A stretch of 64,000 nucleotides of DNA from Candidatus Latescibacterota bacterium (lineage in GTDB: Bacteria > Latescibacterota > UBA2968 > GCA-2709665), in contig OZ241917.1 in assembly GCA_965203805.1 (NCBI GenBank), positions 64,001 to 128,000 of the forward strand, given 5' to 3'. Shown here piece after piece: positions 1 through 25,104 of this stretch. Below the pieces are notes generated by a model. It had not been told where the DNA came from. It was given only the letters and a program-made list of their open reading frames with translations, and searched no databases. Position 1 is the first letter of the stretch. Each line of letters starts with the position of its first letter. Position numbers and translations under genes: made by a program.

Positions 1-629
1 ACGACGACGTGCGGATGGCGGCGAAGACGGGGCCCGACAGCATCTATATGGACGGGATGGAGGGCTCGACCGGGGCCGGGCCCCACCTGGCCACCGAGGA
101 GACGGGCGTTCCGGGAATCGCGGCCATACGGCAGGCCAGAAAGGCGCTGGACGACGTCGGCAAGACCGGAGCGATCACGCTCGTCTACGCGGGCGGGATT
201 CGCAATGGCGCCGACGTGGCCAAGGCGCTTGCGCTTGGCGCGGACGCGGTTGCCATCGGTACGGCGGCAATGGTGGCGCTGAATTGCAACAAGGATATCC
301 CCGAGGCGGATTACGAAGGCACGGTCGGCGTTCCGGCGGGGCAATGCTATCACTGCCATACAGGACTCTGTCCCGTGGGCGTGGCCACCCAGGATCCGGT
401 ACTGCGCGGCCGGCTGGACCCGGATGAGGCGGCCGGGCGTGTGTATAACTTCCTGCATACCCTGGCGATCGAATGCCAGATGTTCGCCAGGGCCTGCGGC
501 AAGACCGATGTTCACTCCCTGGAGCCGGAGGATCTCGCCGCGCTTACCATGGAAGCCTCCGCCATGGCGGAGGTGCCCCTGGCCGGAACCCGATATACCG
601 TCGGGCATCCCGAAATGAACAGGTATTGA
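1..629 (+). CDS. mgsC: FMN-binding glutamate synthase-like protein, likely N-methylglutamate synthase subunit C (5'-partial)
   Basis: DGMEGSTGA, GGIRNGADVAKALALGADAV and Cys motif C..CYHCHTGLCPVGVATQDP of the glutamate synthase FMN/3Fe-4S domain; frame is open to the window edge; context of gmaS, tdm and fhs. Confidence 0.8.
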   Translation, partial: DDVRMAAKTGPDSIYMDGMEGSTGAGPHLATEETGVPGIAAIRQARKALDDVGKTGAITLVYAGGIRNGADVAKALALGADAVAIGTAAMVALNCNKDIPEADYEGTVGVPAGQCYHCHTGLCPVGVATQDPVLRGRLDPDEAAGRVYNFLHTLAIECQMFARACGKTDVHSLEPEDLAALTMEASAMAEVPLAGTRYTVGHPEMNRY

Positions 630-659
630 ACGGCGGAAAGACGGGAACAGGAGACGCCG

Positions 660-1097
660 ATGGACGAAGCCAAAGACGTGAACTACTACCTGAAATCCAC
701 GGGGCTGGACTCGGACCGGGAGAAGGAAATCGGACAGCACATCGGATACCGGTACGATGTGAACCTGCCGCCGGACTACGGGCTTCTGACGCCGTTCCTG
801 GAGCGGTACACAGAGGTGATGGGGTGGAGGGACCTGAACTGGCTGGAAGACGTACATATGGGATACGAAGACGGAAAGCCGGCGGTATTCGACCGGAACA
901 TCAATGGCTGGGTGCTGGTGCCCGAAGATATGACGCTGCCCGACAACCAGCAGGAACGTGACATGATTGCGCGGGAACTGCTCGTCAAGTTTCAGATGTC
1001 CGATAGGCATCCGATGATTGAACTTGGAGATGCCTACGGCCTGAAGCTGGAAGACGAAGACGGCGCGCATGGAGCAGACTCAAACCCGGCAACCTGA
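660..1097 (+). CDS. hypothetical protein (145 aa, acidic, soluble)
   Basis: AGGAG RBS before the ATG, GC3-biased codons, fills the gap between co-oriented genes; no family recognised. Confidence 0.8.
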   Translation: MDEAKDVNYYLKSTGLDSDREKEIGQHIGYRYDVNLPPDYGLLTPFLERYTEVMGWRDLNWLEDVHMGYEDGKPAVFDRNINGWVLVPEDMTLPDNQQERDMIARELLVKFQMSDRHPMIELGDAYGLKLEDEDGAHGADSNPAT

Positions 1098-1113
1098 AAA
1101 CCCGGGAGGCGGT

Positions 1114-2508
1114 ATGAGCAATGCGAAGATGTGGGGCCCGGAGGCGTTCTGGGGTCTGGACTACGACTGGGATCCCCAATGGGTGTTGACGCCCGGACAA
1201 CAGGCGCTCCAGGAGAAACTGATCGACCTCTGCCGGACAACGCTGCGGGACAACGCCGTCGAGAGCGATCGCAACCTCGTGTTTCCACGGGAGAATTTCA
1301 GAGCGCTGGCTTCGCTGGGTCTGCTGGGACTGAACGTGCCACGGGAATGGGGAGGCCTGGGAGAAGACCACACGTGTACGGCGATGGTGGTGGAGACGAT
1401 CGCGCGTTACGGGTGCGCCAGTACCGCGATGTGTTATACCATGCACATCGGGGCCGTGGCCGCCGCGATGTTTCGGGCGCACGACAACGCGACGCTTCAA
1501 AGCCTTATGAAGCGCCTCGACAGCGACGTGCTGGTGGGCACGTTATCCTATTCGGATCCGGAGACGGGCTCTCATTTCTGGTACCCCATTTCTTCCGGAG
1601 CCGAGCGGGTGGAAGGCGGCTGGAAGGTGCGAAAAAAGGCGTCTTGGACGACGTCCGCGGGTTTCGCCGACTGGTACATCGTGCAGACGACGAGCCCCGA
1701 TTTCGCCGGCGATTATTCGAATCTTTCCTGCTTCCTCGTCATGGCGGACGAGGTGAAGGCGGAACCGTCGCTGTGGGACGGCCTGGGGCTGCGCGGGAAT
1801 CAGTCCGGCACGCTGGAGGTCGACAACGTCACGATGCCGGAGAACAGGCTGGTGGGGCCGGTGGGCGACGGGGCGAATTCGAATGACGAAACGGTGGATC
1901 CGTTCTTCCTGTTATGTTCATCGGCCTGCTGGAACGGCATTTCTCTGGGGATGATCGACATCGCCAGGCGGCACACAACCGCGCGGCGACACGCCGACGT
2001 GGGCATGCGGGTGGCGGACTATCCGACAATCCAGGACTACGTAGGCGAGGCCGTGATCGATACCAACGCCTCCCGGTCCTTTGTCTACCTGATGGCCCGC
2101 GCGATGGACGACGTCACGAATCAGTGCGACTGGTCCATCCACCGGGACCTCTCCCGCATGCCACGGGCGGACGTGCTGCACTGGATGTGGCAGGTAAAGT
2201 TCACCGCGGCGAAGAACGTGGCAAACGTCTCCGACAAGATGCTTCATGCCTGCGGCGGGACGGGGTACAAACCCGATCTGGGGATTGAACGATACCTGCG
2301 CGACGGCAAGGCCGGCTGGGTGATGGGCCCCACGAACGAGGTCCTCCGCCAGTTTGTAGGGAAGAGCGTACTGTTGGGATTCGACTCGCTGGACTACTGG
2401 AACCAGTCGGTGAACGAGCGCCTGTTGAGGAACGAACTCAAGAAAATGGACGGCGAGACCAAGAAGGAACTCGCGCGTCAGCTTCTGGCTGAAACCGAAG
2501 ACGGGTGA
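1114..2508 (+). CDS. acyl-CoA dehydrogenase-fold flavoprotein (probable two-component monooxygenase oxygenase)
   Basis: ACAD motifs TLSYSDPETGS, KASWTTSAG, GLRGNQSG, ADYPTIQ, CGGTGY..IERYLRD; GGAGG RBS before ATG 1114; VMGPTNE in place of the usual IYEGTSE. Confidence 0.85.
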   Translation: MSNAKMWGPEAFWGLDYDWDPQWVLTPGQQALQEKLIDLCRTTLRDNAVESDRNLVFPRENFRALASLGLLGLNVPREWGGLGEDHTCTAMVVETIARYGCASTAMCYTMHIGAVAAAMFRAHDNATLQSLMKRLDSDVLVGTLSYSDPETGSHFWYPISSGAERVEGGWKVRKKASWTTSAGFADWYIVQTTSPDFAGDYSNLSCFLVMADEVKAEPSLWDGLGLRGNQSGTLEVDNVTMPENRLVGPVGDGANSNDETVDPFFLLCSSACWNGISLGMIDIARRHTTARRHADVGMRVADYPTIQDYVGEAVIDTNASRSFVYLMARAMDDVTNQCDWSIHRDLSRMPRADVLHWMWQVKFTAAKNVANVSDKMLHACGGTGYKPDLGIERYLRDGKAGWVMGPTNEVLRQFVGKSVLLGFDSLDYWNQSVNERLLRNELKKMDGETKKELARQLLAETEDG

Positions 2509-4841
2509 TGCCTGCGGATGTCCAAATGACGGGGACGGGGCTGCTGAGGTGGACGCCGGGCAGGGAGCGCTATCGGGTGCCGGGCGGGGGGGCGATCGCC
2601 CTTGCGCTTTCGCCCGGCGACCGGCTGGCCGTTGTGGACGTGGAGGGGCGCCAGCGATGCGAACTGGGTGTGTTCGGCCCGGATGGCAATGCCGATCCGT
2701 CCAGGCTGGGCGTTCGGGCCGATGGCCCGATGGAGGGTTTCGCGTCCGCGCTCAGGCGGGGCGACGACAGCGCGCAGGCGGCCGACGCGGCGCTTCGGCG
2801 GCGCGGCGTTGACCTTGCCCGGGCCAGAGCGGTGCAGGTTTTCGGCGGAGAAACGGAAGCCGGCGCCGAAGCGTGCTTCGACGTCGCAGACGACGCCGTT
2901 TGCCTGATTGCGGCGCCTGGCGGACCGATGAGGGTGGATGCCCAGGACCCTCCCACGGAGCTCGACGTCGTGGTCAGGCGCTCGCGCGTTGAGGCGCCGG
3001 AACGCCACCCGCTGCCTTCGCCCCTGGGTGACATGCGCCTGGATCTGGAGGTGGAGAGGGCGTCGGCGATCGCATACGAGGTAAAGGCCGGAGAGTTCAT
3101 CCAGGTGATCGACGCCGCCGGCAGGCAGTGTTCCGATTTTCTGGCCTTCGACGCGAGGCAGTTGCAGCGGGGCATTGAGCGGGGGCTGGACGCGACCACG
3201 ACGCGTACGCTCATGGGCCGGGCCTATCCCGGTCCGGGACTTTTCTCGAAGTTTTGCGACCAGGATATGCAGCCGCTGGTGGAAGTCGTTCGGGATACGG
3301 TAGGTCGGCACGATACGTTTGCGCTTGCGTGCACCGCGAGATATTACGAGGATATGGGTTACCCGGGCCACGTCAACTGTACTGACAACTTCAACGCGGC
3401 ACTGGACCCGTATACGATTCAGCCCCGGCGCGGCTGGCCCGCGGTGAATTTTTTCTACAATACGAGAATAGACCTTAATAACGTCCTTTTCCTGGACGAA
3501 CCATGGTCTCGTCCGGGTGACTACGTGCTGCTGAAAGCCCTGACGGACCTGGTTTGCCTGTCGTCCGCGTGCCCGGACGATATCGATCCGGCCAACGGCT
3601 GGGAGCCAACAGAGATCCAGGTCCGCGTCTACCCCGAACGGTACCGGTTTTCCAGAGGAATTGCGCACCGGATGACGGCAGACGCCGAACCGAGGCTGAC
3701 GAGGGAGACGGCCTTTCACCGGCGAACCTCGGCCCTGACCCGACACTTCGAGGAATACCGCGGTTACTGGCTGCCGTCCTCCTTCACGGGGACCGGCGCC
3801 GTCGAGGAGTATTATGCCTGTCGCGAGGCGGCGGCGGTGATGGACCTGTCCGCGCTTCGCAAGTTCGAGGTCCTGGGGCCGGACGCGGAAGCGCTTCTGC
3901 AGCACACCCTCACGCGAGACGTTCGCAGGCTTTCAGCGGGCCAGGTGACGTATTCCGCCATGTGTTATGAAACCGGCGGCATGCTGGACGACGGCACCCT
4001 GTTCCGGTTGGGCCCGGAGAATTTTCGCTGGATTTGCGGCGAGGATTACGGCGGCGTGTGGTTACGCGAGCAGGCGAGTCGCCGCGGGATGCGGGTGTGG
4101 GTCAGAAACGCCACCGACCAACTCCACAATCTTGCCGTCCAGGGCCCGAGAAGCCGGGATATTCTCGACGAAATCATCTGGACGCCTCCGTCCCGCCCGT
4201 CCCTGGCCGAATTGGGCTGGTTCCGATTCACGGTGGGTCGAATCGACGACGGAAGCGGAGCGGCGGTCGTGGTATCCAGGACCGGCTATACGGGCGAACT
4301 GGGCTATGAGGTGTGGTGCCATCCCGACGATGCGCCCGCGGTCTGGGATGCCATATGGGAATCCGGGCAGCCGCATGGCCTGACCCCGCTGGGGCTGGAA
4401 GCCCTGGACATGCTTCGGATCGAGGCCGGTCTCGTTTTCGCCGGCTGCGAGTTCGACGATCAGACGGACCCGTTTGAGGCGGGCATCGGCTTCACCGTGC
4501 CGCTCAAGCGAAAGAAAGACGATTTCATCGGCAAAGAGGCGCTTATTCGAAGACGGTCCGATCCGCAACGCGTGCTCGTGGGGCTGGAGCTGTCCGGAAA
4601 CGAGCCCGCCGCCACCGGCGACGACGTCTATGACGGACGGGGCCGCGTGGGCGTGATTACCAGCGGCACCCGCTCACCCATTCTGGGCAGGAATATCGCG
4701 CTGTGCCGTCTGGCGACCGGGTACGCAGCCGTCGGCGTGGCCGTGGAGGTGGGAAGGCTGGACGGACATCAGAAGCGGATCCCCGCCCGCGTGGTGCGGT
4801 TTCCGTTCTACGATCCGGAGAAGACCCGGCCCCGGGCCTGA
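2508..4841 (+). CDS. tdm: trimethylamine N-oxide demethylase (DUF1989 + GCV_T aminomethyltransferase)
   Basis: QCSDF, RHDTFALAC-x12-GHVNC and SSACPDDID metal-ligand motifs followed by GCV_T motifs (DLSALRKFEVLGPDA, SRTGYTGELGYE, LRIEAGL, PFYDPEK); ATG overlaps the upstream TGA (TGATG). Confidence 0.88.
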   Translation: MPADVQMTGTGLLRWTPGRERYRVPGGGAIALALSPGDRLAVVDVEGRQRCELGVFGPDGNADPSRLGVRADGPMEGFASALRRGDDSAQAADAALRRRGVDLARARAVQVFGGETEAGAEACFDVADDAVCLIAAPGGPMRVDAQDPPTELDVVVRRSRVEAPERHPLPSPLGDMRLDLEVERASAIAYEVKAGEFIQVIDAAGRQCSDFLAFDARQLQRGIERGLDATTTRTLMGRAYPGPGLFSKFCDQDMQPLVEVVRDTVGRHDTFALACTARYYEDMGYPGHVNCTDNFNAALDPYTIQPRRGWPAVNFFYNTRIDLNNVLFLDEPWSRPGDYVLLKALTDLVCLSSACPDDIDPANGWEPTEIQVRVYPERYRFSRGIAHRMTADAEPRLTRETAFHRRTSALTRHFEEYRGYWLPSSFTGTGAVEEYYACREAAAVMDLSALRKFEVLGPDAEALLQHTLTRDVRRLSAGQVTYSAMCYETGGMLDDGTLFRLGPENFRWICGEDYGGVWLREQASRRGMRVWVRNATDQLHNLAVQGPRSRDILDEIIWTPPSRPSLAELGWFRFTVGRIDDGSGAAVVVSRTGYTGELGYEVWCHPDDAPAVWDAIWESGQPHGLTPLGLEALDMLRIEAGLVFAGCEFDDQTDPFEAGIGFTVPLKRKKDDFIGKEALIRRRSDPQRVLVGLELSGNEPAATGDDVYDGRGRVGVITSGTRSPILGRNIALCRLATGYAAVGVAVEVGRLDGHQKRIPARVVRFPFYDPEKTRPRA

Positions 4842-4960
4842 TCGATAAGCGAATTCCGCGACGCGTCACCGGGGGTTTCGGCGGCCCGGTTGACGGCGTC
4901 CGGACGGCCGGCGGCGGATGAGGCCGGATCCTGCGCCGCGTCCGTTGAGAGGGTATCGGA

Positions 4961-5449
4961 ATGGCGTTCGACCCGATGGAACAACGGCGGATAATGGGTT
5001 GTTTCGCGACCGGGGTAACCGTCGTGACGGCGGTTGCGGGAGGCGAGGCGAGAGGGATGACGGCCAATGCCGTGACCTCGCTGTCGCTGGACCCGCCCCT
5101 GGTCATGGTTGCCGTGGACAAAGGGGCGCAGATGCACGCCCATCTGACCGCCAGCCGCCAATTTGCATTGAATATCCTCAGCGAGGATCAGGAGGCGCTT
5201 TCCGTACAGTTCGCCAGGCCGGGCCCGAAGGACTTTTCGAACGTGGCTTCAACCGCTGGCCGGACGGGCTCGCCCGTCTTCGCGGACGCGCTGGGCCACG
5301 TGGAGTGTCTGCTGGTCGACGTACTGCGGACCGGCGACCACGACATTTTCGTTGGTGAGATTGTGGCGGGCGACGCCGGCGAGGGTCGTCCGCTGCTGTT
5401 TTACCGGGGGAAGTACAGCCGGATGGCGGAAGGGTCCGCGGAGGTCTGA
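4961..5449 (+). CDS. flavin reductase (HpaC/RutF-like)
   Basis: GCFATGVTVVT, GMTANAVTSLSLDPPLV, GDHDIFVGE, PLLFYRG. Confidence 0.93.
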   Translation: MAFDPMEQRRIMGCFATGVTVVTAVAGGEARGMTANAVTSLSLDPPLVMVAVDKGAQMHAHLTASRQFALNILSEDQEALSVQFARPGPKDFSNVASTAGRTGSPVFADALGHVECLLVDVLRTGDHDIFVGEIVAGDAGEGRPLLFYRGKYSRMAEGSAEV

Positions 5450-5503
5450 AGGGTTTCCGTCGCATGCCTGACGGCGTGTTCAAGTTCAATAGGGAGGAAT
5501 GGT

Positions 5504-6895
5504 ATGGATAACGAACTCAGCGCATTGACGGTCGTATTTACGGAATTCTATTACTGGATATGCATCGTTCTCATGTTCCTGATCCACGTCGGCTTCTGTC
5601 TGTATGAAGTCGGCGTCTCCAGGCGGAAGAATATGATGCACACCCTGATGAAGAACGCGATGTTGATTCCGCTGGTGACCATCACGTTCTATTTCTTCGG
5701 GTGGTGGATCTACTTTGCGGTGCAGAACGGGCCCGGGATCACGGGCGGACTCATACAAGCCGCCTGGGCGGAGCCGTGGAATGAACTGATGGGGACGCAT
5801 ATGGGAGGAAAGCCGCACGCCGGCGGGTTGACCGGGGATGATACGGCTCTCTGGGCGCGGTTGAACGGCGTGTTCTGGGCGGCGTTTCTTCTGTTTTCGT
5901 GGACGGCTGGATCGATTCTTTCCGGGGCGGTAATCGAACGCATCCGATCCGGCGCGTTCTGGATCTTTGCGATACTGGTGGGGTCGGTCACCTGGGTGAT
6001 CGATGCGGCGTGGGGATGGTCCGCGGACGGCTGGATGGTGCAGTTGCTGGGTTACCACGACGCGTACGCGTCCGGCGTGATCCACGGGATCAGCGGCGGT
6101 TCCGCGCTGGCGATACTCTATCACCTCGGGCCCCGCATCGGCAGGTTCAGGCCTGACGGCTCTCCCAGGATTTTCCCGCCGCAGAACACGTGGCTGGTCA
6201 TTATCGGACTGTTTTTGATCTATACCGGATTCTGGGGCTTCTATGCGGCCTGCAACGTTCCCATTATGGACATCGATGCCGCAGACGGCAGGTCGTTCTT
6301 CTCGGCCACCACGATTTACCTCACACCCACGACGCTCAGCGCCATCACCTTCAACTTTCTGATGTCTCTCGCCGGCGGATTGATCATGGGGTATTTCGTG
6401 TCCAAAGGCGATCCTTACTGGACCTTCTCGGGCGGACTTGCCGGCATCATCACGGCGTCGGCCGGCAACGACCTGTATCATCCGATGCAGGCGCTTCTCA
6501 TCGGCGCATTCGGCACGTTCTGCATGTACAGGTTGCACAATTGGGTCGAACGCCGCTTCAGGATCGACGATGCGGTGGGCGCCGTGGCGGTGCACGGATA
6601 TGCCGGGGTCATCGGCGTTATTGTCGCGGGATTCGTCCTGTGGGGGTATCCGGGCGCTAATCCCGATTACGCCCCGATAACGCCGTGGGGTCAGACGCTC
6701 GGCGCCGTCATCATGTTTTTCGTGCTGGGTTTTCTGCCATGTTACGTGGTGGGTGCGATTCTCAAGAAGCTGGGCGTTCTCCGCATTCCGGCGCAAATCG
6801 AACTGGCGGGTCTGGATCACACGACCATCGAGAACGAAACGGCCGACGCGAACGAACTCGTCCAGGCGGAAGTCGACGAAGCGCGGGGAAACTGA
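5504..6895 (+). CDS. amt: Amt-family (methyl)ammonium transporter
   Basis: Multiple TM segments, GFCLYEVG-SRRKN, SGAVIER, DAYASGVIH, LGPRIGRF, DDAVGAVAVHG; GGAGG RBS. Confidence 0.92.
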   Translation: MDNELSALTVVFTEFYYWICIVLMFLIHVGFCLYEVGVSRRKNMMHTLMKNAMLIPLVTITFYFFGWWIYFAVQNGPGITGGLIQAAWAEPWNELMGTHMGGKPHAGGLTGDDTALWARLNGVFWAAFLLFSWTAGSILSGAVIERIRSGAFWIFAILVGSVTWVIDAAWGWSADGWMVQLLGYHDAYASGVIHGISGGSALAILYHLGPRIGRFRPDGSPRIFPPQNTWLVIIGLFLIYTGFWGFYAACNVPIMDIDAADGRSFFSATTIYLTPTTLSAITFNFLMSLAGGLIMGYFVSKGDPYWTFSGGLAGIITASAGNDLYHPMQALLIGAFGTFCMYRLHNWVERRFRIDDAVGAVAVHGYAGVIGVIVAGFVLWGYPGANPDYAPITPWGQTLGAVIMFFVLGFLPCYVVGAILKKLGVLRIPAQIELAGLDHTTIENETADANELVQAEVDEARGN

Positions 6896-6904
6896 AGGGA
6901 ATCG

Positions 6905-8590
6905 ATGGGCGAGCAAGGGATATTGCCGGATATCGAAATCGCGAGGCAGGCCGATTTGCTTCACGTCGGCGATGTCGGGAGAAAGCTGGGCGTACCCGAA
7001 GATCAACTGGAGGTCTACGGCAGGTACAAGGCCAAGGTTTCGATGGGTTTTTGCGACAGCCTGGCCGGAAATCCCACCGGTAAACTCGTGCTGGTCTCGG
7101 CGATCAATCCGACGCCCTCCGGCGAGGGCAAGACCACGACAACCGTGGGTCTGGGCGACGCGCTGAACCGGCTGGGCAAGCGCGCGGCCGTGTGTCTCAG
7201 GGAGCCCTCTCTGGGTCCCTGTTTCGGCATGAAGGGAGGCGCTGCCGGCGGCGGGGCCGCGCAGGTCGCGCCAATGGAGGACATCAACCTGCACTTTACG
7301 GGCGATATCCATGCCATCGGCGTCGCCCACAATCTGCTGGCCGCGGCAGTCGACAACCACATTCATCACCGCAACAGGCTGGATATCGATCCCCGGCGCA
7401 TCCTGTGGAAGCGCGCCCTGGATATGAACGACCGGGCGTTGCGCGATATCGTCATCGGTCTCGGGGGCACGGGGAATTCCTATCCTCGAGAATCCGGGTT
7501 TGAAATCACGGTCGCGTCCGAAGTGATGGCGATCTTCTGCCTGTCCGAGTCGCTCGACGAGCTTCGTGAGCGTCTGGGTCGAATCATAGTGGCGCGTACA
7601 CGGGCCAACGAACCGGTTACGGCGGCGGACCTCAATGTGCACGGGGCGATGGCCGTGCTGTTGAAGGACGCGCTGAAACCGAATCTGGTCCAGACGATCG
7701 AGAATAACCCGGCGATCGTCCACGGGGGTCCGTTCGCCAATATCGCGCACGGATGCAACTCGGTGATCGCGACCAAGCTGGCGATGCGTCTGGCCGAATA
7801 CACTGTGACCGAAGCCGGATTCGGCGCGGACCTCGGCGCGGAGAAATTTCTGAACATCAAATGCCGGCAGGCCGGCATCCGCCCGGACGTGGTCGTGCTC
7901 GTGGCAACCGTCCGGGGGCTGAAATACCACGGGGGGACGTCGCTCAGGAGGCTGGCGGACCCCGATCCGGCCGCCGTGGAGAAAGGACTTGTAAATCTCA
8001 GGAAGCATATTGAAAATGTCCGGCGTTTCGGTCTGCCGGCGGTCGTCGCAGTGAACCGGTTTCTAACCGACACCGCCGATGAGGTCGCATTGATCGTGGA
8101 CAGGTGCGCCGACATGGACTTGCCGATCGTTCCTTCGGAACACTGGGCCGCAGGGGGGGCCGGCGCCGAAGCGCTTGCCCGAACGGTCGTCGAAGCCGCG
8201 GAAACGGGGCCTGCCGATTTCAACCTTCTGTATCCCGACAGTCTGCGGTTGTGGGACAAGGCCAGGATTGTGGCCCGGGAAATCTACGGCGCCGACGATA
8301 TCATGGGGGACAAACGCCTGAGAGCCCGGTTCGGAAAGCTCGAGGAAGCGGGGTACGGAAGGTTTCCGGTTTGTATGGCCAAGACCCAGTATTCGCTCTC
8401 GACCGATCCGGGACTGAAGGGCAGACCGAGAGGTTTCGACGTGCCCATCCGCGACGTGAGGGTGTCTGCCGGGGCCGGTTTCGTGGTGGTGTACACCGGC
8501 GATGTCATGACAATGCCGGGGCTGCCCCGCAAACCCTCTGCCGAGGCCATCGACTACGATGAAGCCGGACAGACCGTGGGTCTGTTCTGA
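6905..8590 (+). CDS. fhs: formate--tetrahydrofolate ligase
   Basis: [73 protein letters not shown]. Confidence 0.97.
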
Positions 8591-8728
8591 CGGCACGAGC
8601 CGCCACCGATGGTGTCCGCCGTCTCCGGGGAGCGCGACATCTTCGAAACCAGGCATCCGGACGCTTCGCTTCAGCTTCCGAATGAGACGAATGGTTTCAA
8701 CATACTCACCAGTGTAAGGAGGTGGCAG

Positions 8729-8959
8729 ATGAGAACGGGTCAGATAGACACGTGGACGGGAAATCCGGCTGACGTCGGTCCGATGTACCCCTTTGTCGGG
8801 TACGAGGTTCCTCTATTCGTGGTTTGTGTTGTCCTGTGGCTCGCGTACACGGTCTGGCAGATGAAACACGAGAACGCGGTTTACCGGGAGGAACTGGATC
8901 AGTGCGCCAGCGCCGGCTCTTCGGCATCGGCAACAGAAGGCGAGAGCAAGGATTCCTAA
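8729..8959 (+). CDS. small single-pass membrane protein
   Basis: Strong AAGGAGG RBS before ATG 8729; W-x-G..GPMYPFVG followed by one hydrophobic helix (LFVVCVVLWLAYTVWQ). Confidence 0.75.
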   Translation: MRTGQIDTWTGNPADVGPMYPFVGYEVPLFVVCVVLWLAYTVWQMKHENAVYREELDQCASAGSSASATEGESKDS

Positions 8960-8986
8960 CGTTGATTTTCCTGGGGAGATCTGACG

Positions 8987-10321
8987 ATGACGCTGGACCA
9001 GGTTAAAGATTTCGTAGAGAAAAATGGAATAGACTTCTTTCTGTGCTCGTTTGTGGAGATGAGCGGGATGCCCAAGGCCAAGGTGGTGCCGGTCACGCAC
9101 CTGGACGACATGGCCTCGGAAGGCGCGGGGTTCGCGGGGTTCGCGGCGGGCAATATGGGACAGGGGCCGCACGATTCCGATATGATGAACATACCGGATT
9201 TCAGTTCGATGACCGTGTTGCCATGGCGCAAGAACACGGCGTGGGTGGCGGGTAACATCCAGGTCGAAGGGGAACCGTTCGGCTACTGTCCCCGGACGAT
9301 TATGCAGCGCCAGCTCGAGAAGGCCGAGGCAAGGGGTTATCGGTTGAATCTGGGCGTGGAAGCGGAGTTCATCCTCCTGAAGAAGGACGATCAGGGCCAA
9401 TATACGCTGGCCGACCCGATGGACACGCTGGAAAAGCCCTGTTATGATCTCGTCACGCTGCATCGCAATCTGGATGTGATGACCACGCTCATCGGGTATA
9501 TGCAGGAGCTGGGATGGGAACCCTATGCCAACGACCACGAAGACGCCAATTGCCAGTTCGAGATAAACTGGACCTATTCCGACGCGCTCACGACCGCGGA
9601 CCGGCAGACCTTTTTCAGGTGGATGGTGAAAGTGAACGCGGAGCGTCACGGATACCACGCGACCTTCATGCCGAAACCGTTTTCTCATCTCACCGGCAGC
9701 GGGGCGCATTATCACATGAGCCTGTGGGACCCGGAGAACAGGATCAATCTATTCCTCGACGAGGCAGACGAAAACGGGCTGTCGAAGGAAGCTTACTGGT
9801 TCATGGCGGGCATCCTCAACCACGCCAAGGCGATTTCGGCCGTTTCCGCGCCGCTGGTGAACAGCTATAAGCGACTCACGAGGGGCGCGCCTCGCTCAGG
9901 GGCCTCCTGGGCGCCGATCTGTATCACGTACGGTGGATCGAACCGGACGCAGATGGTTCGCATCCCGGACGCGGGGCGTATCGAGAATCGGGCGATCGAC
10001 GGGGCGGCCAATCCCTATCTGACGACCGCGGCGATGCTGGCGGCGGGGCTCGACGGCATCGAAAACCGCATGGATCCGGGCGAACGCAACGAGGGCAACC
10101 TCTACGAGGTGTCCGAGAGCGAATTGAAAGCGCGGGGCGTCGACCTGCTGCCGGGGACCCTGGCCGAGGCGGCCGATCACCTGGCGTCCGACGACGTGAT
10201 CCGGGAAGCGCTCGGAACGGAATATGCCGACTACTACGTGCAGGTGAAACGCGAAGAGTGGGCGGAGTACCATCTGCACGTCGACCAGTGGGAGCGGGAA
10301 CGCTATCTGCCGGTGTATTAA
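8987..10321 (+). CDS. gmaS: gamma-glutamylmethylamide synthetase (GlnT-type glutamine synthetase family)
   Basis: GAGFAGFA, GVEAEF, KPCYD, PYANDHEDANCQFE, ATFMPKPF..TGSGAHYH, SGASWAP, DGAANPYL; context of mgsC and tdm. Confidence 0.85.
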   Translation: MTLDQVKDFVEKNGIDFFLCSFVEMSGMPKAKVVPVTHLDDMASEGAGFAGFAAGNMGQGPHDSDMMNIPDFSSMTVLPWRKNTAWVAGNIQVEGEPFGYCPRTIMQRQLEKAEARGYRLNLGVEAEFILLKKDDQGQYTLADPMDTLEKPCYDLVTLHRNLDVMTTLIGYMQELGWEPYANDHEDANCQFEINWTYSDALTTADRQTFFRWMVKVNAERHGYHATFMPKPFSHLTGSGAHYHMSLWDPENRINLFLDEADENGLSKEAYWFMAGILNHAKAISAVSAPLVNSYKRLTRGAPRSGASWAPICITYGGSNRTQMVRIPDAGRIENRAIDGAANPYLTTAAMLAAGLDGIENRMDPGERNEGNLYEVSESELKARGVDLLPGTLAEAADHLASDDVIREALGTEYADYYVQVKREEWAEYHLHVDQWERERYLPVY

Positions 10322-10348
10322 AGCTGGTTGACGTCGCGAGGTCTGCCT

Positions 10349-11692
10349 ATGGAGAGTGCAGTTGAACGGACGGTTCGGGAAGCGCCGCGGGGCATTGGAG
10401 GATTGCTCCGAAATATCGGTCCGGGCGTAGTTGTGTCCGGATCGGTGGTCGGGTCCGGCGAGTTGCTCGTTACGACGCGCATGGGCGCCGAGGTGGGCTT
10501 CGTGTTTCTCTGGGGGGTGATCCTGGCCTGTCTGGTCAAGTTCTTCATCCAGCTTGAACTCGGGCGCCAGTGCGTTCTGCACAACAGTACGACGATACAG
10601 GTACTGGATCGTGTGCCCGGAATGCGGCTGGCGAATACCTCGTGGGCGGCATGGTTGTGCGTGCTGGGATACTTCTCGGTAATGATCGCCGTGATCGGCA
10701 TCCTGGGGTCGGTGGCCGGACTGATGGTGACCCTCCTTCCCGGCGTCCCGTACAACGTCTGGGCCGTTCTGGTATTCGCGGCCATCTCGATTCTGCTGTA
10801 CCGGGGTCTGTACGCCGACCTGGAGCGCATGATCACCGTACTGGTTGCGGGCTTCAGTCTGGTTGTTATCGGGTCCGTCGTGGCGATGCAGGCAACGCCC
10901 TACGCCGTGGGCGGCGACGAGATATTGTCAGGGTTTCGCTTCGCCTTGCCGGCGGACGGGGCATTTGTGGCCATGGCTGTGATGGGGTCGGTGGGCGCGA
11001 CGGCGGTGGAGTTGTTTATGTATCCTTACTGGGTGAGGGAAAAAGGGTATGCGGATTTCGTCGGACCTCGTGAGGATACACCTGAATGGCGGGCGCGCTA
11101 TCGGGGCTGGATGCGGGTGCTGAAAACCGACGCGCTGGTCTGCACGGGAATCGCATTGGTGATTACCTGCGCCTACTATCTGCTGGGCGCTGCGATACTC
11201 AAGAAACTGAACGTGGTTCCCCAGGGCATGGAGGTCGTCGAGCAGGTATCGCTGATTTTTACACGAAGCATCGGACCGTGGACCAAGAACGTGTTCATGT
11301 TCGGCGCGTTCTGCACGCTGTTTTCCACGCTGCTCGTCTTTACCGCCAGTTCGGGACGCATCAGCGTGGACTTTCTGAGGCGGACGGGCGTCGCCAGTCT
11401 CGATCACGAGGACGGCCGGCTTCGGCTGCTGAGGGCGTTGCAGATCGCCTTTCCGTTTCTGTGGCTCTGTGTGACCATTGCAACCCCGAATACGCCCCTG
11501 GCCCTGGTGCTGATCGGGGCCAATGCCAATAACCTGCTGCTGATTCCGATGGCCTACGGCGTGGTGCACCTGGCGATGCGCGCCGCGGACCCGGAACGGA
11601 TGTCCGTCTGGACGGAACTTGGATTGCTGCTGACGATCTGGGCGATCATCAACTTTACCGCGATCAATCTGTATCTGAACTGGACGCGTTAG
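10349..11692 (+). CDS. Nramp/MntH-related membrane transporter
   Basis: IGPGVVVSGSVVGSGEL N-terminal motif, about 11 TM segments, YPYWVREKG; start uncertain (TTG 10328 or ATG 10349). Confidence 0.8.
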   Translation: MESAVERTVREAPRGIGGLLRNIGPGVVVSGSVVGSGELLVTTRMGAEVGFVFLWGVILACLVKFFIQLELGRQCVLHNSTTIQVLDRVPGMRLANTSWAAWLCVLGYFSVMIAVIGILGSVAGLMVTLLPGVPYNVWAVLVFAAISILLYRGLYADLERMITVLVAGFSLVVIGSVVAMQATPYAVGGDEILSGFRFALPADGAFVAMAVMGSVGATAVELFMYPYWVREKGYADFVGPREDTPEWRARYRGWMRVLKTDALVCTGIALVITCAYYLLGAAILKKLNVVPQGMEVVEQVSLIFTRSIGPWTKNVFMFGAFCTLFSTLLVFTASSGRISVDFLRRTGVASLDHEDGRLRLLRALQIAFPFLWLCVTIATPNTPLALVLIGANANNLLLIPMAYGVVHLAMRAADPERMSVWTELGLLLTIWAIINFTAINLYLNWTR

Positions 11693-11715
11693 GCATCTGG
11701 AAAGACGCGGAATCC

Positions 11716-11747
11716 AGAAGGGCGGCCGGTAGCGGCCGCCCTTTTTC
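11716..11747 (+). terminator. intrinsic terminator
   Basis: GGGCGGCCG-gtag-CGGCCGCCC followed by TTTTT, between convergent genes. Confidence 0.85.
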
Positions 11748-11791
11748 TGATCGACACGTGCAGAGTCCCGGCGTGGGAGCCGTGGCAACGG

Positions 11792-14143
11792 TCAATCCGA
11801 CGTCTCCACCCAGATGGGTGTGCTCCATCCCTTCGCGCCCATGGCGTGCGCGACGTTGCCGGGGTATTGGGGGACGGGTTCGGGCGACATGACTTCGAGG
11901 TGGTAGTAGTGCCTTCCGGGACGGTACCGGCGCAACTGGAATTCCTTTCGCTCCCCCTGGGTATGGCCGATGAACCTGTCGTCGTGCATCAGACGTCCGT
12001 CCCGGTGGATGCGCAGGATGTATTCACATCCGGCCTCTCCCACGACGCGCCATTTCAGCACCGGATCGTCCCTCACGAGCAGCGAACTGCCCATCATCCG
12101 GTCGTTGATCGTGAATTCGATCAGGATCTGCTGGCCGGCCGTCGCGTAACAACGCCTGGCCCTGATCGCGTCGAGGAAGGCGGCCCGGTCCAGCCGATCG
12201 GCCCAGATGCCGGTGAGCGCGCCGCTCAGGCCCGGGTTGCGGTGGTGGCTGTCGCCGCTGCCGGTGAAGGCGAATTTTCGGCCCGCGTCAAGGTATTTGA
12301 AATAGACGTCGTACAGGTCGATGTTGATCATCCAGCCGGCGCATACGTCGACGCCCCATTCCACGTCCGTGTCGTAAAGATTCCATTTCCCGTTGTGGGG
12401 ATGGGGGAGCGGCAGGTAGCCCTTTTCCTTGAACCAGGCGAGGCACTCCCGGGTGTCCTTGTGGGTATGCCGCTCGCCCTTCGTGTGAGCGTCCTTGTAC
12501 TTGAAGTGCAGCAGGTCCATCTCCATGTCGTCGTCGTCCGACATCACCGACCGGTGGTCCCGCCCGGAGTCCACCCGGTCGGTGATGGTCATTTCGTAGC
12601 CCGGAAACATGGCGAATTGCCCTAGATCATTCAGGACCATGGCGTTGCCCTTCACGTAGTCCCACTCATAGTCCTTCAGGTGCCGCACGTTCCGGCGCGT
12701 GGGCAGATTCCAGAAGCTGTCGTTGTCGGAGACGGTCAGCCCGTCGATCTGCGCCTTGTCGCGGGCGTAGTGACCCAATTCATCCGGCTCGCCCTCTACT
12801 TCGATGGATGCCGCCGAGTGGCAGTGCAGGTCCACCCAGAAGAGGTGGTACTTGCCGCGTTCCGCGCCGGGCAGTTGGTTGCCGGGCCGTTCCGTGCGCC
12901 GCCGCCTTTCGAACGGAAGCCGGACTTCCTTCCATTCGGTCAGGTCGATACGGCGGTTTTCAACGGGTACCACGGGGAGATCGACTGTCAGGCGCGCGTT
13001 TTCCAGATATCGCTCGTCGGTAACCATGTCTTGAGACATCAGGTGAACCCCGGTACCGACCGTGCCGTTGTGGGGAAGCTCATAGAAGACGTTTCCTTCG
13101 GCGACAGTGCGAGGATCCGACCAGACGCCGTCGACGCAGGGTTGGCCGAAGAGGCGGCCCGTGGAATTGAGCGTGCCCTGCTCGCTGTCGGCCTTGACTT
13201 CGTAGAACAGCCACACGCCGCCGGATTCCGCGCCCTTGAGGATGGGGAAAAGCCGCCTGCCCATGTGCCCCAGGTTGGGCGGTTTCGGAAACTCGGTCAG
13301 CAGCCCGTAGTGCAGCGGGGCGATCTCCGTCCCTCCTTCGGCACCGGAAACCGGCTCCCAGGACAGGCCGTCCAGCCGGGCGCACCGCAGGGAATACTTC
13401 TGCTGGAGGGTGCTGTCCCTGTACATGACGTCCACGCCGCGCACCCACGCCGCCCAGAGTGAACCTCCTGTGTCCCTGCAGAGCGTCGACCTGTTCTCCC
13501 ACCCCTCGTCGGTGCTGATCCGGACCACTTTCCGCGGGCCAGAGGGATCGACAGCGCAGCCGAATATGTCGTAGGTGCGTTCCATATAGCTGTCCCAGAC
13601 GATATAGATGCCTTCCGACCCCCATTCGACTATCCTGGGCCGGTAGTTGTAGCGTCCTCCGTTTCGAATCGTCCAGGTCGCGGTCTTGCCATCCGGTAGT
13701 GTCCTGAGGACCCGGATGCTGCCGTTTCGACTGACGGATTCCGCCCAGCTGATCCACAGAGCGCCGGTTTCGTCGAGGACGGCCTGAGGCTCCCAGACTT
13801 TCGCCGACGCAGGCAGGGTCAGGCATGTCCGGCAGGGACTGAACGAATTCCCGTCCCGCCTGCGGGTCCTGAACGCGTACTGGCGGCCGGTCTTTTCCAG
13901 CCAGACGAATACCACTTCATTCCCGTCGGGTATGCAGATGGGACGGGTCTGCATGGCGTCGTTCGTGGATATCGGCTCAATCGGACCCGCGGTCTCTCCG
14001 GCGAACTGTCGAACGAAAACCCTCGACCCCTCGGCCGCGTAAGCCGCCCAGGCCGCCCAGCAGGTGTTGCCGTCCGGCAGGGTGCACAGATTGGGTTCGT
14101 AACTGTCGTTCGAATAAACGCCCTCGGTGATCGCGATTTTCAC
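11792..14143 (-). CDS. PHP/CehA-McbA (DUF3604-like) metallohydrolase with an N-terminal beta-propeller-like region
   Basis: VDLHCHS, SDND, PGYE, PHPH, GSGDSH..PG, RARRCYATAG, WSTPIWV; GTG 14143 preceded by AAGGAA; the longer ORF call runs through a MITE. Confidence 0.75.
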   Translation of the reverse strand: MKIAITEGVYSNDSYEPNLCTLPDGNTCWAAWAAYAAEGSRVFVRQFAGETAGPIEPISTNDAMQTRPICIPDGNEVVFVWLEKTGRQYAFRTRRRDGNSFSPCRTCLTLPASAKVWEPQAVLDETGALWISWAESVSRNGSIRVLRTLPDGKTATWTIRNGGRYNYRPRIVEWGSEGIYIVWDSYMERTYDIFGCAVDPSGPRKVVRISTDEGWENRSTLCRDTGGSLWAAWVRGVDVMYRDSTLQQKYSLRCARLDGLSWEPVSGAEGGTEIAPLHYGLLTEFPKPPNLGHMGRRLFPILKGAESGGVWLFYEVKADSEQGTLNSTGRLFGQPCVDGVWSDPRTVAEGNVFYELPHNGTVGTGVHLMSQDMVTDERYLENARLTVDLPVVPVENRRIDLTEWKEVRLPFERRRRTERPGNQLPGAERGKYHLFWVDLHCHSAASIEVEGEPDELGHYARDKAQIDGLTVSDNDSFWNLPTRRNVRHLKDYEWDYVKGNAMVLNDLGQFAMFPGYEMTITDRVDSGRDHRSVMSDDDDMEMDLLHFKYKDAHTKGERHTHKDTRECLAWFKEKGYLPLPHPHNGKWNLYDTDVEWGVDVCAGWMINIDLYDVYFKYLDAGRKFAFTGSGDSHHRNPGLSGALTGIWADRLDRAAFLDAIRARRCYATAGQQILIEFTINDRMMGSSLLVRDDPVLKWRVVGEAGCEYILRIHRDGRLMHDDRFIGHTQGERKEFQLRRYRPGRHYYHLEVMSPEPVPQYPGNVAHAMGAKGWSTPIWVETSD

Positions 14144-16123: not shown

Positions 16124-18217
16124 TCAGCCGACGTCGATCACGAGATTGCCGTAGTCGTCCACGGTTACGGTACAATCGGGCGGAACAAGGGTTGTAGAGT
16201 CGATTTCCTCCACGATGGCGGGACCCGTGAAGCGGTTGTTCGCCTGAAGGCGGTACCGGTCGTAGATCGACGCGGGCGCCGGTTCGGTGGAACCCGGCAT
16301 GCGGACGTCGCGTTTCGCCTTCAGGGCCGTGCGCGAGGAAGGTCCGCCCTTGGGAACCTGCCGCCGGCTGGGGCGCGGCACGGCGCCCACGGCTGAGAGA
16401 CGCACGTTGACGATTTCCGTGGGTTCCTCCCGGGTTGCGAATCCGTACTGGCGCCGGTGGGCGGTGACAAAGGCGTCGTTCATCTTCCGGGGAAGGCTTT
16501 CCGACAGACGGCCGACGGGTACCCGAAGTTCGTAGGACTGGCCCAGATACCGCATATCGGCCTCGCGGACGAAGCGGATGTTGTCGCGGGAGACGCCTTC
16601 GCTCAAAAGCAGGCCGGTCGCGTGGTCTTCAAACTCGCGGTAGATGTCCGAAAGTCGGGTCACGTCCAGATCATCCGTCCTCTCGATATACGTGCGAACG
16701 TAGTCATGACGCAGGTCGGTAACAAGCAGTCCGAGCGCCGTGGTCACGCCGGGACTGGGCGGTACGAGGACGGTGCGGATGTGCAGCGCCCTGGCCAGCG
16801 CCACGGCATGGAGCGGGCCGGCGCCGCCGAAAGCCACCAGGACGAACGCGCGGGGGTCCACGCCTTTCTGGACCGACACGAGTTGGAGGATGCCCGTCAT
16901 ATTGGCATTGGCGATTTCAATCAGCCCGGCGGCTGCTTCCTCGACGGACAGATTCAGGGGACCGGCGATGCGCCGGCTGAGCGCCTCTTTGGCGAGCGAC
17001 TTGTCAAGGCGGAGTTCACCTCCCAGAAAGTAACCGGGATCGAGGCGGTCGAGAACGAGGTTTGCGTCCGTCAGCGTGGGTTCCGACCCCCCCTTTCCAT
17101 AACAGGCGGGTCCCGGCGCCGCGCCCGCGGATTGCGGGCCTACGGCAAGCGCCCCGCCCGGATCGACGTGGCCGATGCTCCCGCCGCCGGACCCGATTTC
17201 GACCAGATCGATCACGGGCGTTTTTACCGGATAACCCTGACCCTTGTCCCGGGTGGTGGTTGCAACCGCGGCATCGCCGACCTCGAATTCGGCGGCCAGG
17301 CGCGGCTGTCCGTTTTCGATAAGCGCCGCCTTCGCGGTTGTGCCCCCGATGTCCAGCGCAATCAGATCTTCGTACCCGGCCAGCCGGCCCACGTACGAAG
17401 CCGCGATGACGCCCGCTGCCGGACCGGATTCGATGAGCTGTACGGGCTGCTGCCTGGCGGTCCCGGAGGCGATGATGCCGCCGCCGGAAGTCATCAGGAA
17501 CAGGCCGGAGCCGGGGTTCACCGCTCCGAGCCGGTCCTCCAGGCGTTCCACGTAGGCGCCCACCGCCGGAAGCAGCGCGGCATTGACCGCCGTTGTGCTG
17601 GCGCGGGTATATTCGCGGTATTCGGGACAGATGTCGGAGGAGATGCAGACGGGCAGACGGGGACATGCTTCCCGGATGATCCCGGCGGCCCGCCGTTCGT
17701 GCGCCGGGTCCAGATAGGCGTGCAGGAAGCAGACGAGAATCGCTTCCACCCCGTCCTCGGCCAGTCTACCTGCGGCACGGTACACGGCGGCCTCGTCCAG
17801 GGGGACGAGAACCTCGCCATGGGCATCGATGCGTTCGGGTACGCCAACGCACAGGTGGCGCGGTACGAGCGGAGGGGGTTTGTCGTAGTCGAGGTCGTAG
17901 AGGTTGGGCCGGATCTGCCACGCGATCTCGAAAAGATCGCTGAAGCCCTCCGAGGCGATGAGCCCGATCCGGGCGCCTTTCTGCTGGATGATCGTGTTGG
18001 TCGCCACGGTCGTGCCGTGTACCACGAAGCCCACTTGCCGGGCCGTGAGCCCCTGGTTGTCGAGGCCGCGGGTATACGCTTCCATGAAAGCCCGTGAGGG
18101 ATCGTCAGGAGTGGAGGAAACCTTGACGGGGCGGAAGTCGCCCGTGTTTTCGTCCATCACCACGGCATCGGTGAACGTGCCGCCGATGTCGATGCCGATG
18201 CGGTAAGAGGCACTCAT
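16124..18217 (-). CDS. hydantoinase/5-oxoprolinase subunit A (HyuA-like)
   Basis: IGIDIGGTFTD, HGTTVATN, ESGPAAG, DIGGTTA, GSGGGSI, AGAAPGPACYG, FGGAGPLH, RYLGQSYEL. Confidence 0.93.
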   Translation of the reverse strand: MSASYRIGIDIGGTFTDAVVMDENTGDFRPVKVSSTPDDPSRAFMEAYTRGLDNQGLTARQVGFVVHGTTVATNTIIQQKGARIGLIASEGFSDLFEIAWQIRPNLYDLDYDKPPPLVPRHLCVGVPERIDAHGEVLVPLDEAAVYRAAGRLAEDGVEAILVCFLHAYLDPAHERRAAGIIREACPRLPVCISSDICPEYREYTRASTTAVNAALLPAVGAYVERLEDRLGAVNPGSGLFLMTSGGGIIASGTARQQPVQLIESGPAAGVIAASYVGRLAGYEDLIALDIGGTTAKAALIENGQPRLAAEFEVGDAAVATTTRDKGQGYPVKTPVIDLVEIGSGGGSIGHVDPGGALAVGPQSAGAAPGPACYGKGGSEPTLTDANLVLDRLDPGYFLGGELRLDKSLAKEALSRRIAGPLNLSVEEAAAGLIEIANANMTGILQLVSVQKGVDPRAFVLVAFGGAGPLHAVALARALHIRTVLVPPSPGVTTALGLLVTDLRHDYVRTYIERTDDLDVTRLSDIYREFEDHATGLLLSEGVSRDNIRFVREADMRYLGQSYELRVPVGRLSESLPRKMNDAFVTAHRRQYGFATREEPTEIVNVRLSAVGAVPRPSRRQVPKGGPSSRTALKAKRDVRMPGSTEPAPASIYDRYRLQANNRFTGPAIVEEIDSTTLVPPDCTVTVDDYGNLVIDVG

Positions 18218-19968: not shown

Positions 19969-20095
19969 GCCCGGTCTCCCTGAACGGCTTCCCCGGGAAG
20001 TAAGCGGGGGGTGAACGAAACGTGGTATGATCGGCTGCAGCGCGCTGGCGGAACCGGAAGTCAATTCGCACTTTCGCTCCGCAGGAGGTTGTTTT

Positions 20096-24986: not shown

Positions 24987-25015
24987 ATAATAGCATGGGC
25001 GGTGGAAATTGTCAA
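24987..25015 (-). promoter_or_regulatory. sigma70-type promoter
   Basis: TTGACA-17 bp-TATTAT with an extended -10 TG, on the - strand. Confidence 0.7.
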
Positions 25016-25038
25016 AGCGGAAGGCGACCCGTCGAAGC

Positions 25039-25071
25039 TTGACAGTCCCGCCCGCGTGTGTTATATATAAT
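25039..25071 (+). promoter_or_regulatory. divergent sigma70-type promoter
   Basis: TTGACA at 25039 followed by TG-TTATATATAAT; -10 register ambiguous. Confidence 0.55.
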
Positions 25072-25104
25072 AAATCGAAGCATTCTTCCACGGGGGCCTA
25101 TCGG

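Follow-up and report, generated by a model that had tools for sequence, protein, structure and literature searches.

A gene for a protein of the acyl-CoA dehydrogenase (ACAD) fold, translationally coupled to the trimethylamine N-oxide (TMAO) demethylase gene tdm and accompanied by a flavin reductase gene, was found in a 64,000-nucleotide (nt) stretch of a Candidatus Latescibacterota genome (OZ241917.1, positions 64,001–128,000; hereafter the window). We propose that the ACAD-fold protein and the flavin reductase form a two-component flavin N-oxygenase that turns trimethylamine (TMA) into TMAO and serves as a nonhomologous stand-in for Tmm, a reading in which our confidence is evenly balanced. 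It draws on the observed gene order, translational coupling, fold, lost catalytic Glu, reductase partner and fusions, and phyletic pattern, from which we predict substrate, product, and flavin chemistry. An earlier note on the window had suggested that the module replaces a missing methylamine step. That idea gained support from the lack of Tmm and Dmm in the genome, from the co-occurrence with Tdm, and from the complementarity with Tmm; the 145-amino acid (aa) protein that the note had counted as a component dropped out of the module, and the function itself stays a prediction.

The ACAD-Fold Gene Is Coupled to tdm across Phyla

Coordinates refer to the window unless marked as genome (G000:C1) or locus (L...) positions. 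The source genome is a single contig of 5.87 Mb, rated 99.81% complete with 9.32% contamination, and every gene of the cluster described here lies on the plus strand. The ACAD-fold protein, the candidate oxygenase component, has 464 aa and is encoded at 1114–2508; the open reading frame (ORF) is open from 1069, and the start is probably the ATG at 1114, which has a GGAGG 6 nt upstream and gives a length in line with the 462–469 aa of the homologs. Its TGA (2506–2508) overlaps the ATG of tdm (2508–2510). The overlap reads directly as gggTGATGcc, bearing out the coupling that had been claimed in the earlier note. Tdm (2508–4841; ORF 2505–4841) matches its family model NF053776 with 1244 bits (cut-off 1100) and shows the expected architecture of a DUF1989 domain (PF09347) joined to the folate-binding GcvT domains PF01571 and PF08669. 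The gene for the NAD(P)H:flavin reductase (4961–5449), the candidate reductase component, begins 120 nt past tdm and scores 146.6 bits against PF01613 (Flavin_Reduct; cut-off 27). The reductase is thus where the earlier note had placed it; it is HpaC/HsaB/StyB-like and matches the NCBIfam equivalogs HpaC, HsaB, and StyB below threshold only.

To place this arrangement in context, we scanned one genome per species and obtained 254 relatives, the best 80 of which (71–97% identity) are the basis of all locus counts below. Orthologs occur in at least six phyla, among them Latescibacterota, Gemmatimonadota, Acidobacteriota, Alphaproteobacteria, Verrucomicrobiota (Udaeobacter), and Cyanobacteria, and the alphaproteobacterial carriers include the cultured Xanthobacter flavus, Labrys okinawensis, Dongia deserti, Virgifigura deserti, and Zavarzinia. 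Tdm was found 3′ of the ACAD gene in 51 of the 80 loci, 25 times on the same strand and 26 times in convergent orientation. Twenty same-strand loci have the two genes within 300 nt of each other, and in nine of these the gap between the aligned regions is 0, as in the TGATG of the window. Of the 29 loci with no Tdm, 18 are cut short by the end of the contig, and flanks of the full 8 kb are available for the other 11. A Flavin_Reduct homolog is present in 48 of the 80 loci, at most 400 nt from the ACAD gene in 23 of them.

The Distribution of the ACAD Gene Is Complementary to That of Tmm, Not of DmmA

The whole-genome counts cover 51 genomes, 50 of the 80 source genomes (mostly those with longer contigs) and the window's own. 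Tdm (E ≤ 1e-100) was found in 50 of the 51, over the family cut-off in 46, so the co-occurrence of ACAD homologs and tdm that the earlier note had put up for checking is close to complete. Tmm exceeded its cut-off in five of these genomes and DmmA in two (X. flavus and Labrys), and 45 lack both. In the complete genome of the window, we found no match to PF00743, PF11927, Tmm, DmmA, or DmmC, and tblastn with Tmm returned nothing; PF11927 served as the DmmC marker and was validated on the Labrys and Xanthobacter proteins. The absence of Tmm and Dmm, noted earlier for the window, thus extends to the whole one-contig genome.

We then turned to samples of 401 genomes each. Among 401 Alphaproteobacteria, sampled without bias, 37 have Tdm at E ≤ 1e-150, 30 of them over the cut-off; the 37 include 9 with the ACAD gene, 20 with Tmm, and 6 with DmmA. 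The 30 genomes over the cut-off comprise 1 with both ACAD and Tmm, 8 with ACAD only, 17 with Tmm only, and 4 with neither, a complementarity that is statistically significant (Fisher P = 0.0006; P = 0.0055 for n = 37), with the reservation that these P values ignore shared ancestry. In the same 30 genomes, ACAD and DmmA show no association (1 of 9 ACAD-positive vs. 4 of 21 ACAD-negative genomes, P = 1.0). The anticorrelation with tmm and dmm that the earlier note had wanted examined therefore holds for the former and fails for the latter. An ACAD-family match at E ≤ 1e-100 is present in 11 of the 401 Alphaproteobacteria: the nine with at least 67% identity are all Tdm positive, and the remaining two, at 59% identity, are paralogs in Tdm-negative genomes. 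The 401 Acidobacteriota point in the same direction, so that the contrast is seen in two phyla: eight are Tdm positive, all eight have the ACAD gene, and none has Tmm. In two of the eight, which add to the six known from the locus scan, the ACAD gene is directly upstream of tdm. Because the family is complementary to Tmm and not to DmmA, we favor N-oxygenation of TMA to TMAO over an N-demethylation.

An ACAD-Lineage Protein without the Dehydrogenase Base

The ORF at 1069–2508 carries ACAD domains only (PF02771, 62 bits; PF02770, 34 bits; PF00441, 42 bits), and the FMO-like domain of Tmm (PF00743/NF058570) was not detected in it. The best NCBIfam match is Rv1679/FadE16 (NF049984), with 218 bits far below the cut-off of 600, and none of the named ACAD families is matched at the equivalog level. 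The group D monooxygenase families likewise stay under their cut-offs, with 62.7 of 850 bits for DszC, 69.1 of 430.9 for SfnB, 63.1 of 450 for HsaA, and 52.7 of 650 for HpaH-C2. When solved structures were searched by sequence, the ordinary ACADs 8i4p and 7w0j came first (111 bits), and 3m9v and 4kcf, which we take to be the nitrososynthases KijD3 and DnmZ, scored 48 bits.

The HMMER alignment to 8i4p places the Gly of VMGPT opposite the catalytic Glu of YEGT, the MCAD-type position, and VDPFF opposite the helix segment LDHTR, with a Phe where the IVD-type Glu is expected; the IVD/LCAD-type base presumably lies in this LDHTR segment. In an alignment of 68 sequences, every row of the family is nonacidic at both positions. 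The by-eye observation that Glu is missing at the MCAD-type and IVD/LCAD-type positions is thus upheld by both alignments. The AlphaFold2 (AF2) model (pLDDT 94.2) has the ACAD fold and resembles ACAD-fold chains with Foldseek TM scores of 0.85–0.93 and VIA Z scores of 44–49, true ACADs giving the best superposition (TMt about 0.9); 5z8t, named a “flavin-containing monooxygenase,” ranks 23 in Foldseek (TMt 0.87). Fold comparison was also tried as a means of separating oxygenases from dehydrogenases and abandoned, the top matches all being ACAD-fold chains. The earlier note had named DszC and HpaB for comparison; in sequence and predicted fold, the protein is closer to true ACADs and Rv1679/FadE16 than to DszC, HsaA, or HpaH. 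Judged by sequence and model, it appears to be an ACAD-lineage protein that lacks the dehydrogenase base and stands outside the known oxygenase families.

A search of 1.84 billion representative sequences defined the limits of the family. It is isolated, consisting of one main cluster at 50% identity (P0121) and a few full-length outliers (P0123, 50%; P0127, 46%), beyond which come FadE16-like proteins at no more than 39% identity. At E ≤ 1e-10 we counted at least 1492 protein clusters, a number that probably includes relatives of other ACAD families. A tree of 41 rows, from a quick IQ-TREE search in which the animal sequences were trimmed to residues 1–500, separates the family from the FadE16-like neighbors by a long branch with full support. 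These neighboring families carry MAPT where ACADs have YEGT. A paralogous clade (the P0123 cluster; L082:9155–10564; L083:8913–10346; G090 and G439) has 50–62% identity and is found with no tdm nearby and also in Tdm-negative genomes; the gene contexts of the divergent paralogs in L082 and L083 gave nothing interpretable.

These kinships bear on a role outside amine oxygenation, be it as an acyl-CoA or acyl-carrier dehydrogenase, a desulfinase-like enzyme, or an accessory of Tdm, for example one supplying reducing power for the iron of Tdm. Such a role would agree with the closest solved and curated relatives, which are acyl-CoA dehydrogenases and the uncharacterized Rv1679/FadE16, and with a MAPT motif common to the neighboring FadE16-like families. 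We nevertheless consider it unlikely: both Glu positions are nonacidic, no electron transfer flavoprotein, CoA-ligase, or CoA-transferase family is among the neighbor clusters that recur in at least 3 of the 80 loci, and neither the tight cross-phylum tie to Tdm nor the fusions to NADH reductases described below would be expected of a fatty-acid enzyme.

Animal Homologs Are Fused to an NADH Reductase

Three outliers of the family (P0122, P0129, and P0134), from Homarus americanus and the ostracod Notodromas, have the ACAD-like domain fused to FAD_binding_6 and NAD_binding_1, an NADH module of the cytochrome-b5-reductase/FNR type. Over residues 20–476, P0122 and the window protein share 52% identity. 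With its C-terminal part as query, we found 59 proteins at E ≤ 1e-20, most of the same architecture, and the fusions were seen in decapods, a stomatopod, an isopod, amphipods (including the hadal Hirondellea gigas), krill, barnacles, an ostracod, and a chiton. Many of the fusion proteins (P0122, P0129, P0134, and P0296–P0349) are encoded on chromosome-scale contigs, often as several paralogs, and they are unnamed or misnamed. The animal sequences form one clade within the family (SH-aLRT 98, in the tree of 41 rows).

A monooxygenase that is to be self-sufficient needs an NADH reductase of its own, whereas a dehydrogenase does not. Crustaceans accumulate TMAO. PMC5893861 describes a rise of TMAO with depth in fish and invertebrates. 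The accumulation and the depth trend fit TMAO as the product, although this is only a lead, and the animal fusions may represent a TMAO-forming enzyme acquired from bacteria.

Proposed Reaction and Comparison with Known Systems

In the proposed mechanism, the reductase would reduce FMN or FAD with NAD(P)H, and the ACAD-fold protein would take over the reduced flavin and, with O2, make a C4a-hydroperoxyflavin that gives one oxygen atom to the amine nitrogen. The main reaction would thus be TMA + O2 + reduced flavin → TMAO + H2O. The coupled Tdm would then split TMAO into dimethylamine (DMA) and formaldehyde, and its GcvT domain would trap the formaldehyde as methylene-tetrahydrofolate, which could feed the folate C1 branch. 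The cluster encodes a formate-tetrahydrofolate ligase (6905–8590; PF01268, 858 bits; NF010030, 858 bits, cut-off 652). Our literature search, with subscription journals and supplements outside its reach, found no paper linking an ACAD-fold protein to TMA or DMA oxidation and none describing the crustacean fusions.

The candidate would share with Tmm, a class B flavin-containing monooxygenase (FMO; NF058570, PF00743), the reaction from TMA to TMAO, and it shares with it a position by tdm: Tmm is at most 6 kb from Tdm in 12 of the 20 Tmm-positive genomes among the 37 Tdm-positive Alphaproteobacteria. In Tdm genomes, the two have complementary distributions. The two proteins are not homologous. 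Tmm has a Rossmann fold and works with NADPH and FAD as a single component, whereas the candidate has the ACAD fold and would need a separate or fused flavin reductase. The ACAD fold is shared by the group D N-oxygenases, presumably including KijD3 and DnmZ (3m9v and 4kcf), and the isobutylamine N-hydroxylase with its reductase, whose reductase-fed flavin and oxygen transfer to an amine nitrogen are the features proposed here. These enzymes differ in serving antibiotic synthesis instead of C1 catabolism, their substrates being amino sugars or a primary amine, and in not being linked to tdm, and the window protein scores only 48 bits to 3m9v and 4kcf.

Two-component ACAD-fold oxygenation of a small methylated heteroatom compound, proposed here for TMA, has parallels in DszC, SfnB, and the dimethyl sulfide (DMS)/dimethyl sulfoxide (DMSO) enzymes of Acinetobacter baylyi. 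According to PMC13352529, two-component ACAD-fold enzymes of A. baylyi, fed by one flavin reductase, oxidize DMS and DMSO, and DMS, a cosubstrate of Tmm, is thus oxidized by enzymes of this fold. DszC and SfnB differ in targeting sulfur and not nitrogen, and the window protein is far under their cut-offs. Rv1679/FadE16 is the nearest curated family, with relatives that share MAPT in place of YEGT; it differs in about 80 extra residues, in a long, fully supported separate branch, and in a score of 218 against the cut-off of 600. A literature search for FadE16 by name gave only omics listings. DmmDABC, which has heme/PAS, FNR-like, and GcvT-like subunits (PMC5520151), belongs to the same pathway, and Labrys and Xanthobacter encode it in one cluster with the ACAD gene; it is not homologous to the ACAD module, and its distribution is not complementary.

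Several observations weigh against a TMA N-oxygenase. Both sequence (111 bits) and predicted fold (Z 44–49) are nearest to true acyl-CoA dehydrogenases; the 50 best VIA matches are all ACAD-type chains, with no classical group D monooxygenase among them, and the second-best NCBIfam match is the 3-sulfinopropanoyl-CoA desulfinase family (103 bits; apart from Rv1679/FadE16, no match exceeds 103.5). The missing Glu is compatible with a CoA-bound substrate. No reductase gene is near the ACAD gene in 32 of the 80 loci. Five ACAD genomes also have Tmm; in the loci L047 (Virgifigura), L050, and L073, it is located between the ACAD gene and tdm, where it would be redundant, and Labrys combines the ACAD gene with both Tmm and DmmDABC. 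Because the phyletic contrast is partly lineage bound, the Fisher P values overstate independence. Simple uptake from outside could, moreover, supply many Tdm organisms with TMAO. The co-occurrence with Tmm, the lineage-bound contrast, the reductase-less loci, and the ACAD kinship together mean that a strict one-for-one replacement is not universal; a wider substrate range or a role in DMA oxidation is possible.

If the TMA N-oxygenase reading is true, the consequences reach beyond this locus. Methylated amines form a large reservoir of organic nitrogen and carbon and are aerosol precursors, and gene surveys count TMA oxidizers by tmm; such surveys would overlook a whole set of oxidizers, including 9 of the 30 Tdm-positive Alphaproteobacteria, 8 of the 8 Tdm-positive Acidobacteriota, and symbionts of sponges and corals. 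The family would add to the ACAD-fold oxygenases a new lineage with its origin in the dehydrogenase branch, and the crustacean fusions would be candidates for animal TMAO synthesis outside the FMO family.

A Separate Candidate for the DMA Step

The oxidation of DMA is called a bottleneck in PMC5520151. In 13 loci, a 450-aa FAD oxidoreductase of the DAO family (PF01266) is encoded 3′ of tdm (e.g., L029:11737–13089). Its orthologs (63–100% identity) are present in 43 of the 51 ACAD genomes; the two genomes with DmmA have none. Among the 37 Tdm-positive Alphaproteobacteria, 24 have the gene, including Tmm-positive and very small genomes, and it is often within about 15 kb of tdm. In the window's genome, it is located at G000:C1:801999–803354 (L085:5999–7354), near a gene resembling the beta subunit of N,N-dimethylformamidase (DMFase). 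The protein is distinct from the SoxB-like MgdA, with 29% identity to the copy in the N-methylglutamate cluster. Its distribution makes the DAO-family protein a candidate for the DMA-oxidizing enzyme of Dmm-less bacteria, and if it does oxidize DMA, the ACAD module would be left with the TMA step.

The DMFase-beta-like gene (G000:C1:796550–798985; L085:550–2985) encodes 811 aa with a C-terminal domain like the beta subunit of DMFase (PF20254, 231 bits) and precedes the DAO-family gene by 3 kb; a thiamine pyrophosphate enzyme is encoded between the two. DMFase releases DMA.

Alternatively, the ACAD module might itself act on DMA, by N-hydroxylation or oxidative demethylation to monomethylamine (MMA), replacing DmmABC and joining Tdm to the type III glutamine synthetase-like ligase of the GmaS type (8987–10321; TIGR03105, 598 bits, cut-off 470), a candidate gamma-glutamylmethylamide synthetase. 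DmmA is missing from 49 of the 51 ACAD genomes, the window's included, the cluster encodes a producer of DMA (Tdm) and a consumer of MMA (the GmaS-type ligase) but no known enzyme to link the two, and four genomes combine Tmm, Tdm, and the ACAD gene without DmmA. On the other side stand the lack of complementarity with DmmA reported above, the presence of the ACAD gene in one cluster with dmmDABC in Labrys and Xanthobacter, where dmmDABC and a TMAO permease flank the module, and the competing DAO-family candidate. The hydroxylation of a methyl C–H is, moreover, atypical of flavin-hydroperoxide chemistry. We regard a DMA-specific role as improbable.

Slightly less probable still is a broad N-oxygenase that acts on TMA and also on DMA, giving N,N-dimethylhydroxylamine, with Tdm demethylating each N-oxide in turn so that two enzymes would lead from TMA to MMA. 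This would account for the 45 of 51 ACAD genomes that have neither Tmm nor DmmA, most of them with MMA-pathway genes beside the module, and it would reconcile genomes that have Tmm without Dmm with those that have Dmm without Tmm. It is assumption throughout, including the use of dimethylhydroxylamine by Tdm, and for DMA a simpler route is at hand in the DAO-family candidate.

Carrying the TMA N-oxygenase reading to its full extent, the family would be the TMA monooxygenase of Tmm-less bacteria in soil, freshwater, sponges, and corals, with a route from the ACAD-fold protein and its reductase through Tdm to the DAO-family enzyme acting on DMA; an old transfer to crustaceans and a chiton would have given a fused, self-sufficient enzyme making TMAO as osmolyte and piezolyte. 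This complete scenario is conceivable, though we hold it to be rather doubtful.

The 145-aa Protein Belongs to an N-Methylglutamate-Synthase-Like Set

The earlier note was correct in placing a 145-aa protein of no assigned family 5′ of the ACAD gene: it is encoded at 660–1097, and neither Pfam nor NCBIfam gave a match. Its 17 aligned homologs share 64 invariant columns, and at least 7994 homologous clusters exist, none of them named. Upstream of it lies the 3′ part (1–629) of an MgsC-like gene with a GltB-FMN domain (PF01645 Glu_synthase, 132 bits), which encodes 456 aa and starts at genome position 63259. This gene is 84–97% identical between phyla and present in 28 of the 80 ACAD loci. In 26 of these 28 loci, the 145-aa gene is at most 700 nt from it, and in eight of the 26, the pair is far from the ACAD gene. 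Since the 145-aa gene stays by the GltB-FMN-like gene even away from the ACAD gene, it belongs to the set of glutamine synthetase (GS)-like, GATase, GXGXG, and GltB-FMN proteins, which resembles N-methylglutamate synthase, and is outside the oxygenase module. Structure prediction for the 145-aa protein gave a pLDDT of 62 with AF2; Foldseek found nothing at E ≤ 0.001, and the ESM Atlas yielded no usable match; predicting its complex with the GltB-FMN-like protein (score 0.00, mark 0.32) gave evidence neither way.

In the window's genome, the GS-like, GATase, and GXGXG genes are apart from this locus, at about 1.40 Mb (G000:C1:~1,399,500–1,411,200), in a region that also has mgd-like genes and another mgsABC-like set, which is more divergent. 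In Acidobacteriota, the whole set, including the GltB-FMN and 145-aa genes, forms one row upstream of the ACAD gene. 5′ of the GltB-FMN-like gene, at G000:C1:61425–63073 (L001:15425–17073), are genes for a 290-aa protein of no family and an S-adenosylmethionine-dependent methyltransferase, which have 73–97% identity and are kept only in Latescibacterota and Gemmatimonadota loci.

Other Neighbors, Habitat, and Expression

In the window, the flavin reductase gene is followed by a gene for an Amt-family transporter (5504–6895; PF00909, 190 bits), possibly a carrier of ammonium or methylated amines, which recurs in 20 of the 80 loci. The gene for a 116-aa protein (8609–8959), matched by tblastn at 44–87% identity in related loci and with DUF4381 as its only, subthreshold match, lies between the formate-tetrahydrofolate ligase and GmaS-type genes, and an Nramp-like transporter gene (10328–11692) follows the latter. 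Scanning positions 1–12000 for promoters and terminators found nothing that sets the operon limits.

Twelve alphaproteobacterial and Udaeobacter loci (L047:3973–6317 and 11 others, Dongiaceae type and Udaeobacter; clusters c11, c12, and c17) encode a membrane protein of the FA_desaturase family, an aromatic-lyase homolog, and a cold-shock-domain protein, the lyase gene standing upstream of the cold-shock-domain, reductase, and ACAD genes. A PDB sequence search found no solved relative of the FA_desaturase-like protein; with the lyase homolog it found histidine ammonia-lyases and tyrosine aminomutases, with no ergothionase among the matches listed. The lyase homologs lack a triad of the Ala-Ser-Gly type near the position where we take the methylideneimidazolone (MIO) triad to be; one member has a TSG at 112, which we judged to be an upstream conserved motif. 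According to bioRxiv 10.1101/2025.08.13.670108, MIO-less relatives of aromatic lyases are trimethylammonia-lyases that release TMA, and from its missing MIO triad alone, the homolog is possibly such a TMA-releasing lyase. In eight alphaproteobacterial loci (including L021, L026, L032, L037, and L079; clusters c20, c23, c24, and c35), a Liv-type ABC transporter with Peripla_BP_6, two BPD_transp_2 permeases, and ATPases is divergent from the ACAD gene and may serve the uptake of a small amine or amide.

The stretch was found in sponge, coral, and marine metagenomes of seven studies. In one RNA library, from a sample in which the strain is also present as DNA, the cluster is covered by contigs that match it to 99% or better and span the ACAD/tdm (2297–2948) and reductase/Amt (5308–5615) junctions, with other parts of the stretch uncovered; because DNA carry-over is possible, we take this as a weak hint of expression only. 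Also near the cluster are two separate pairs of hydantoinase A/B genes resembling oxoprolinase or caprolactamase, one in the window (16124–20313, minus strand) and one at L001:1396–5282, and the window also has a MauE-family gene with a rhodanese gene at 25009–26060.

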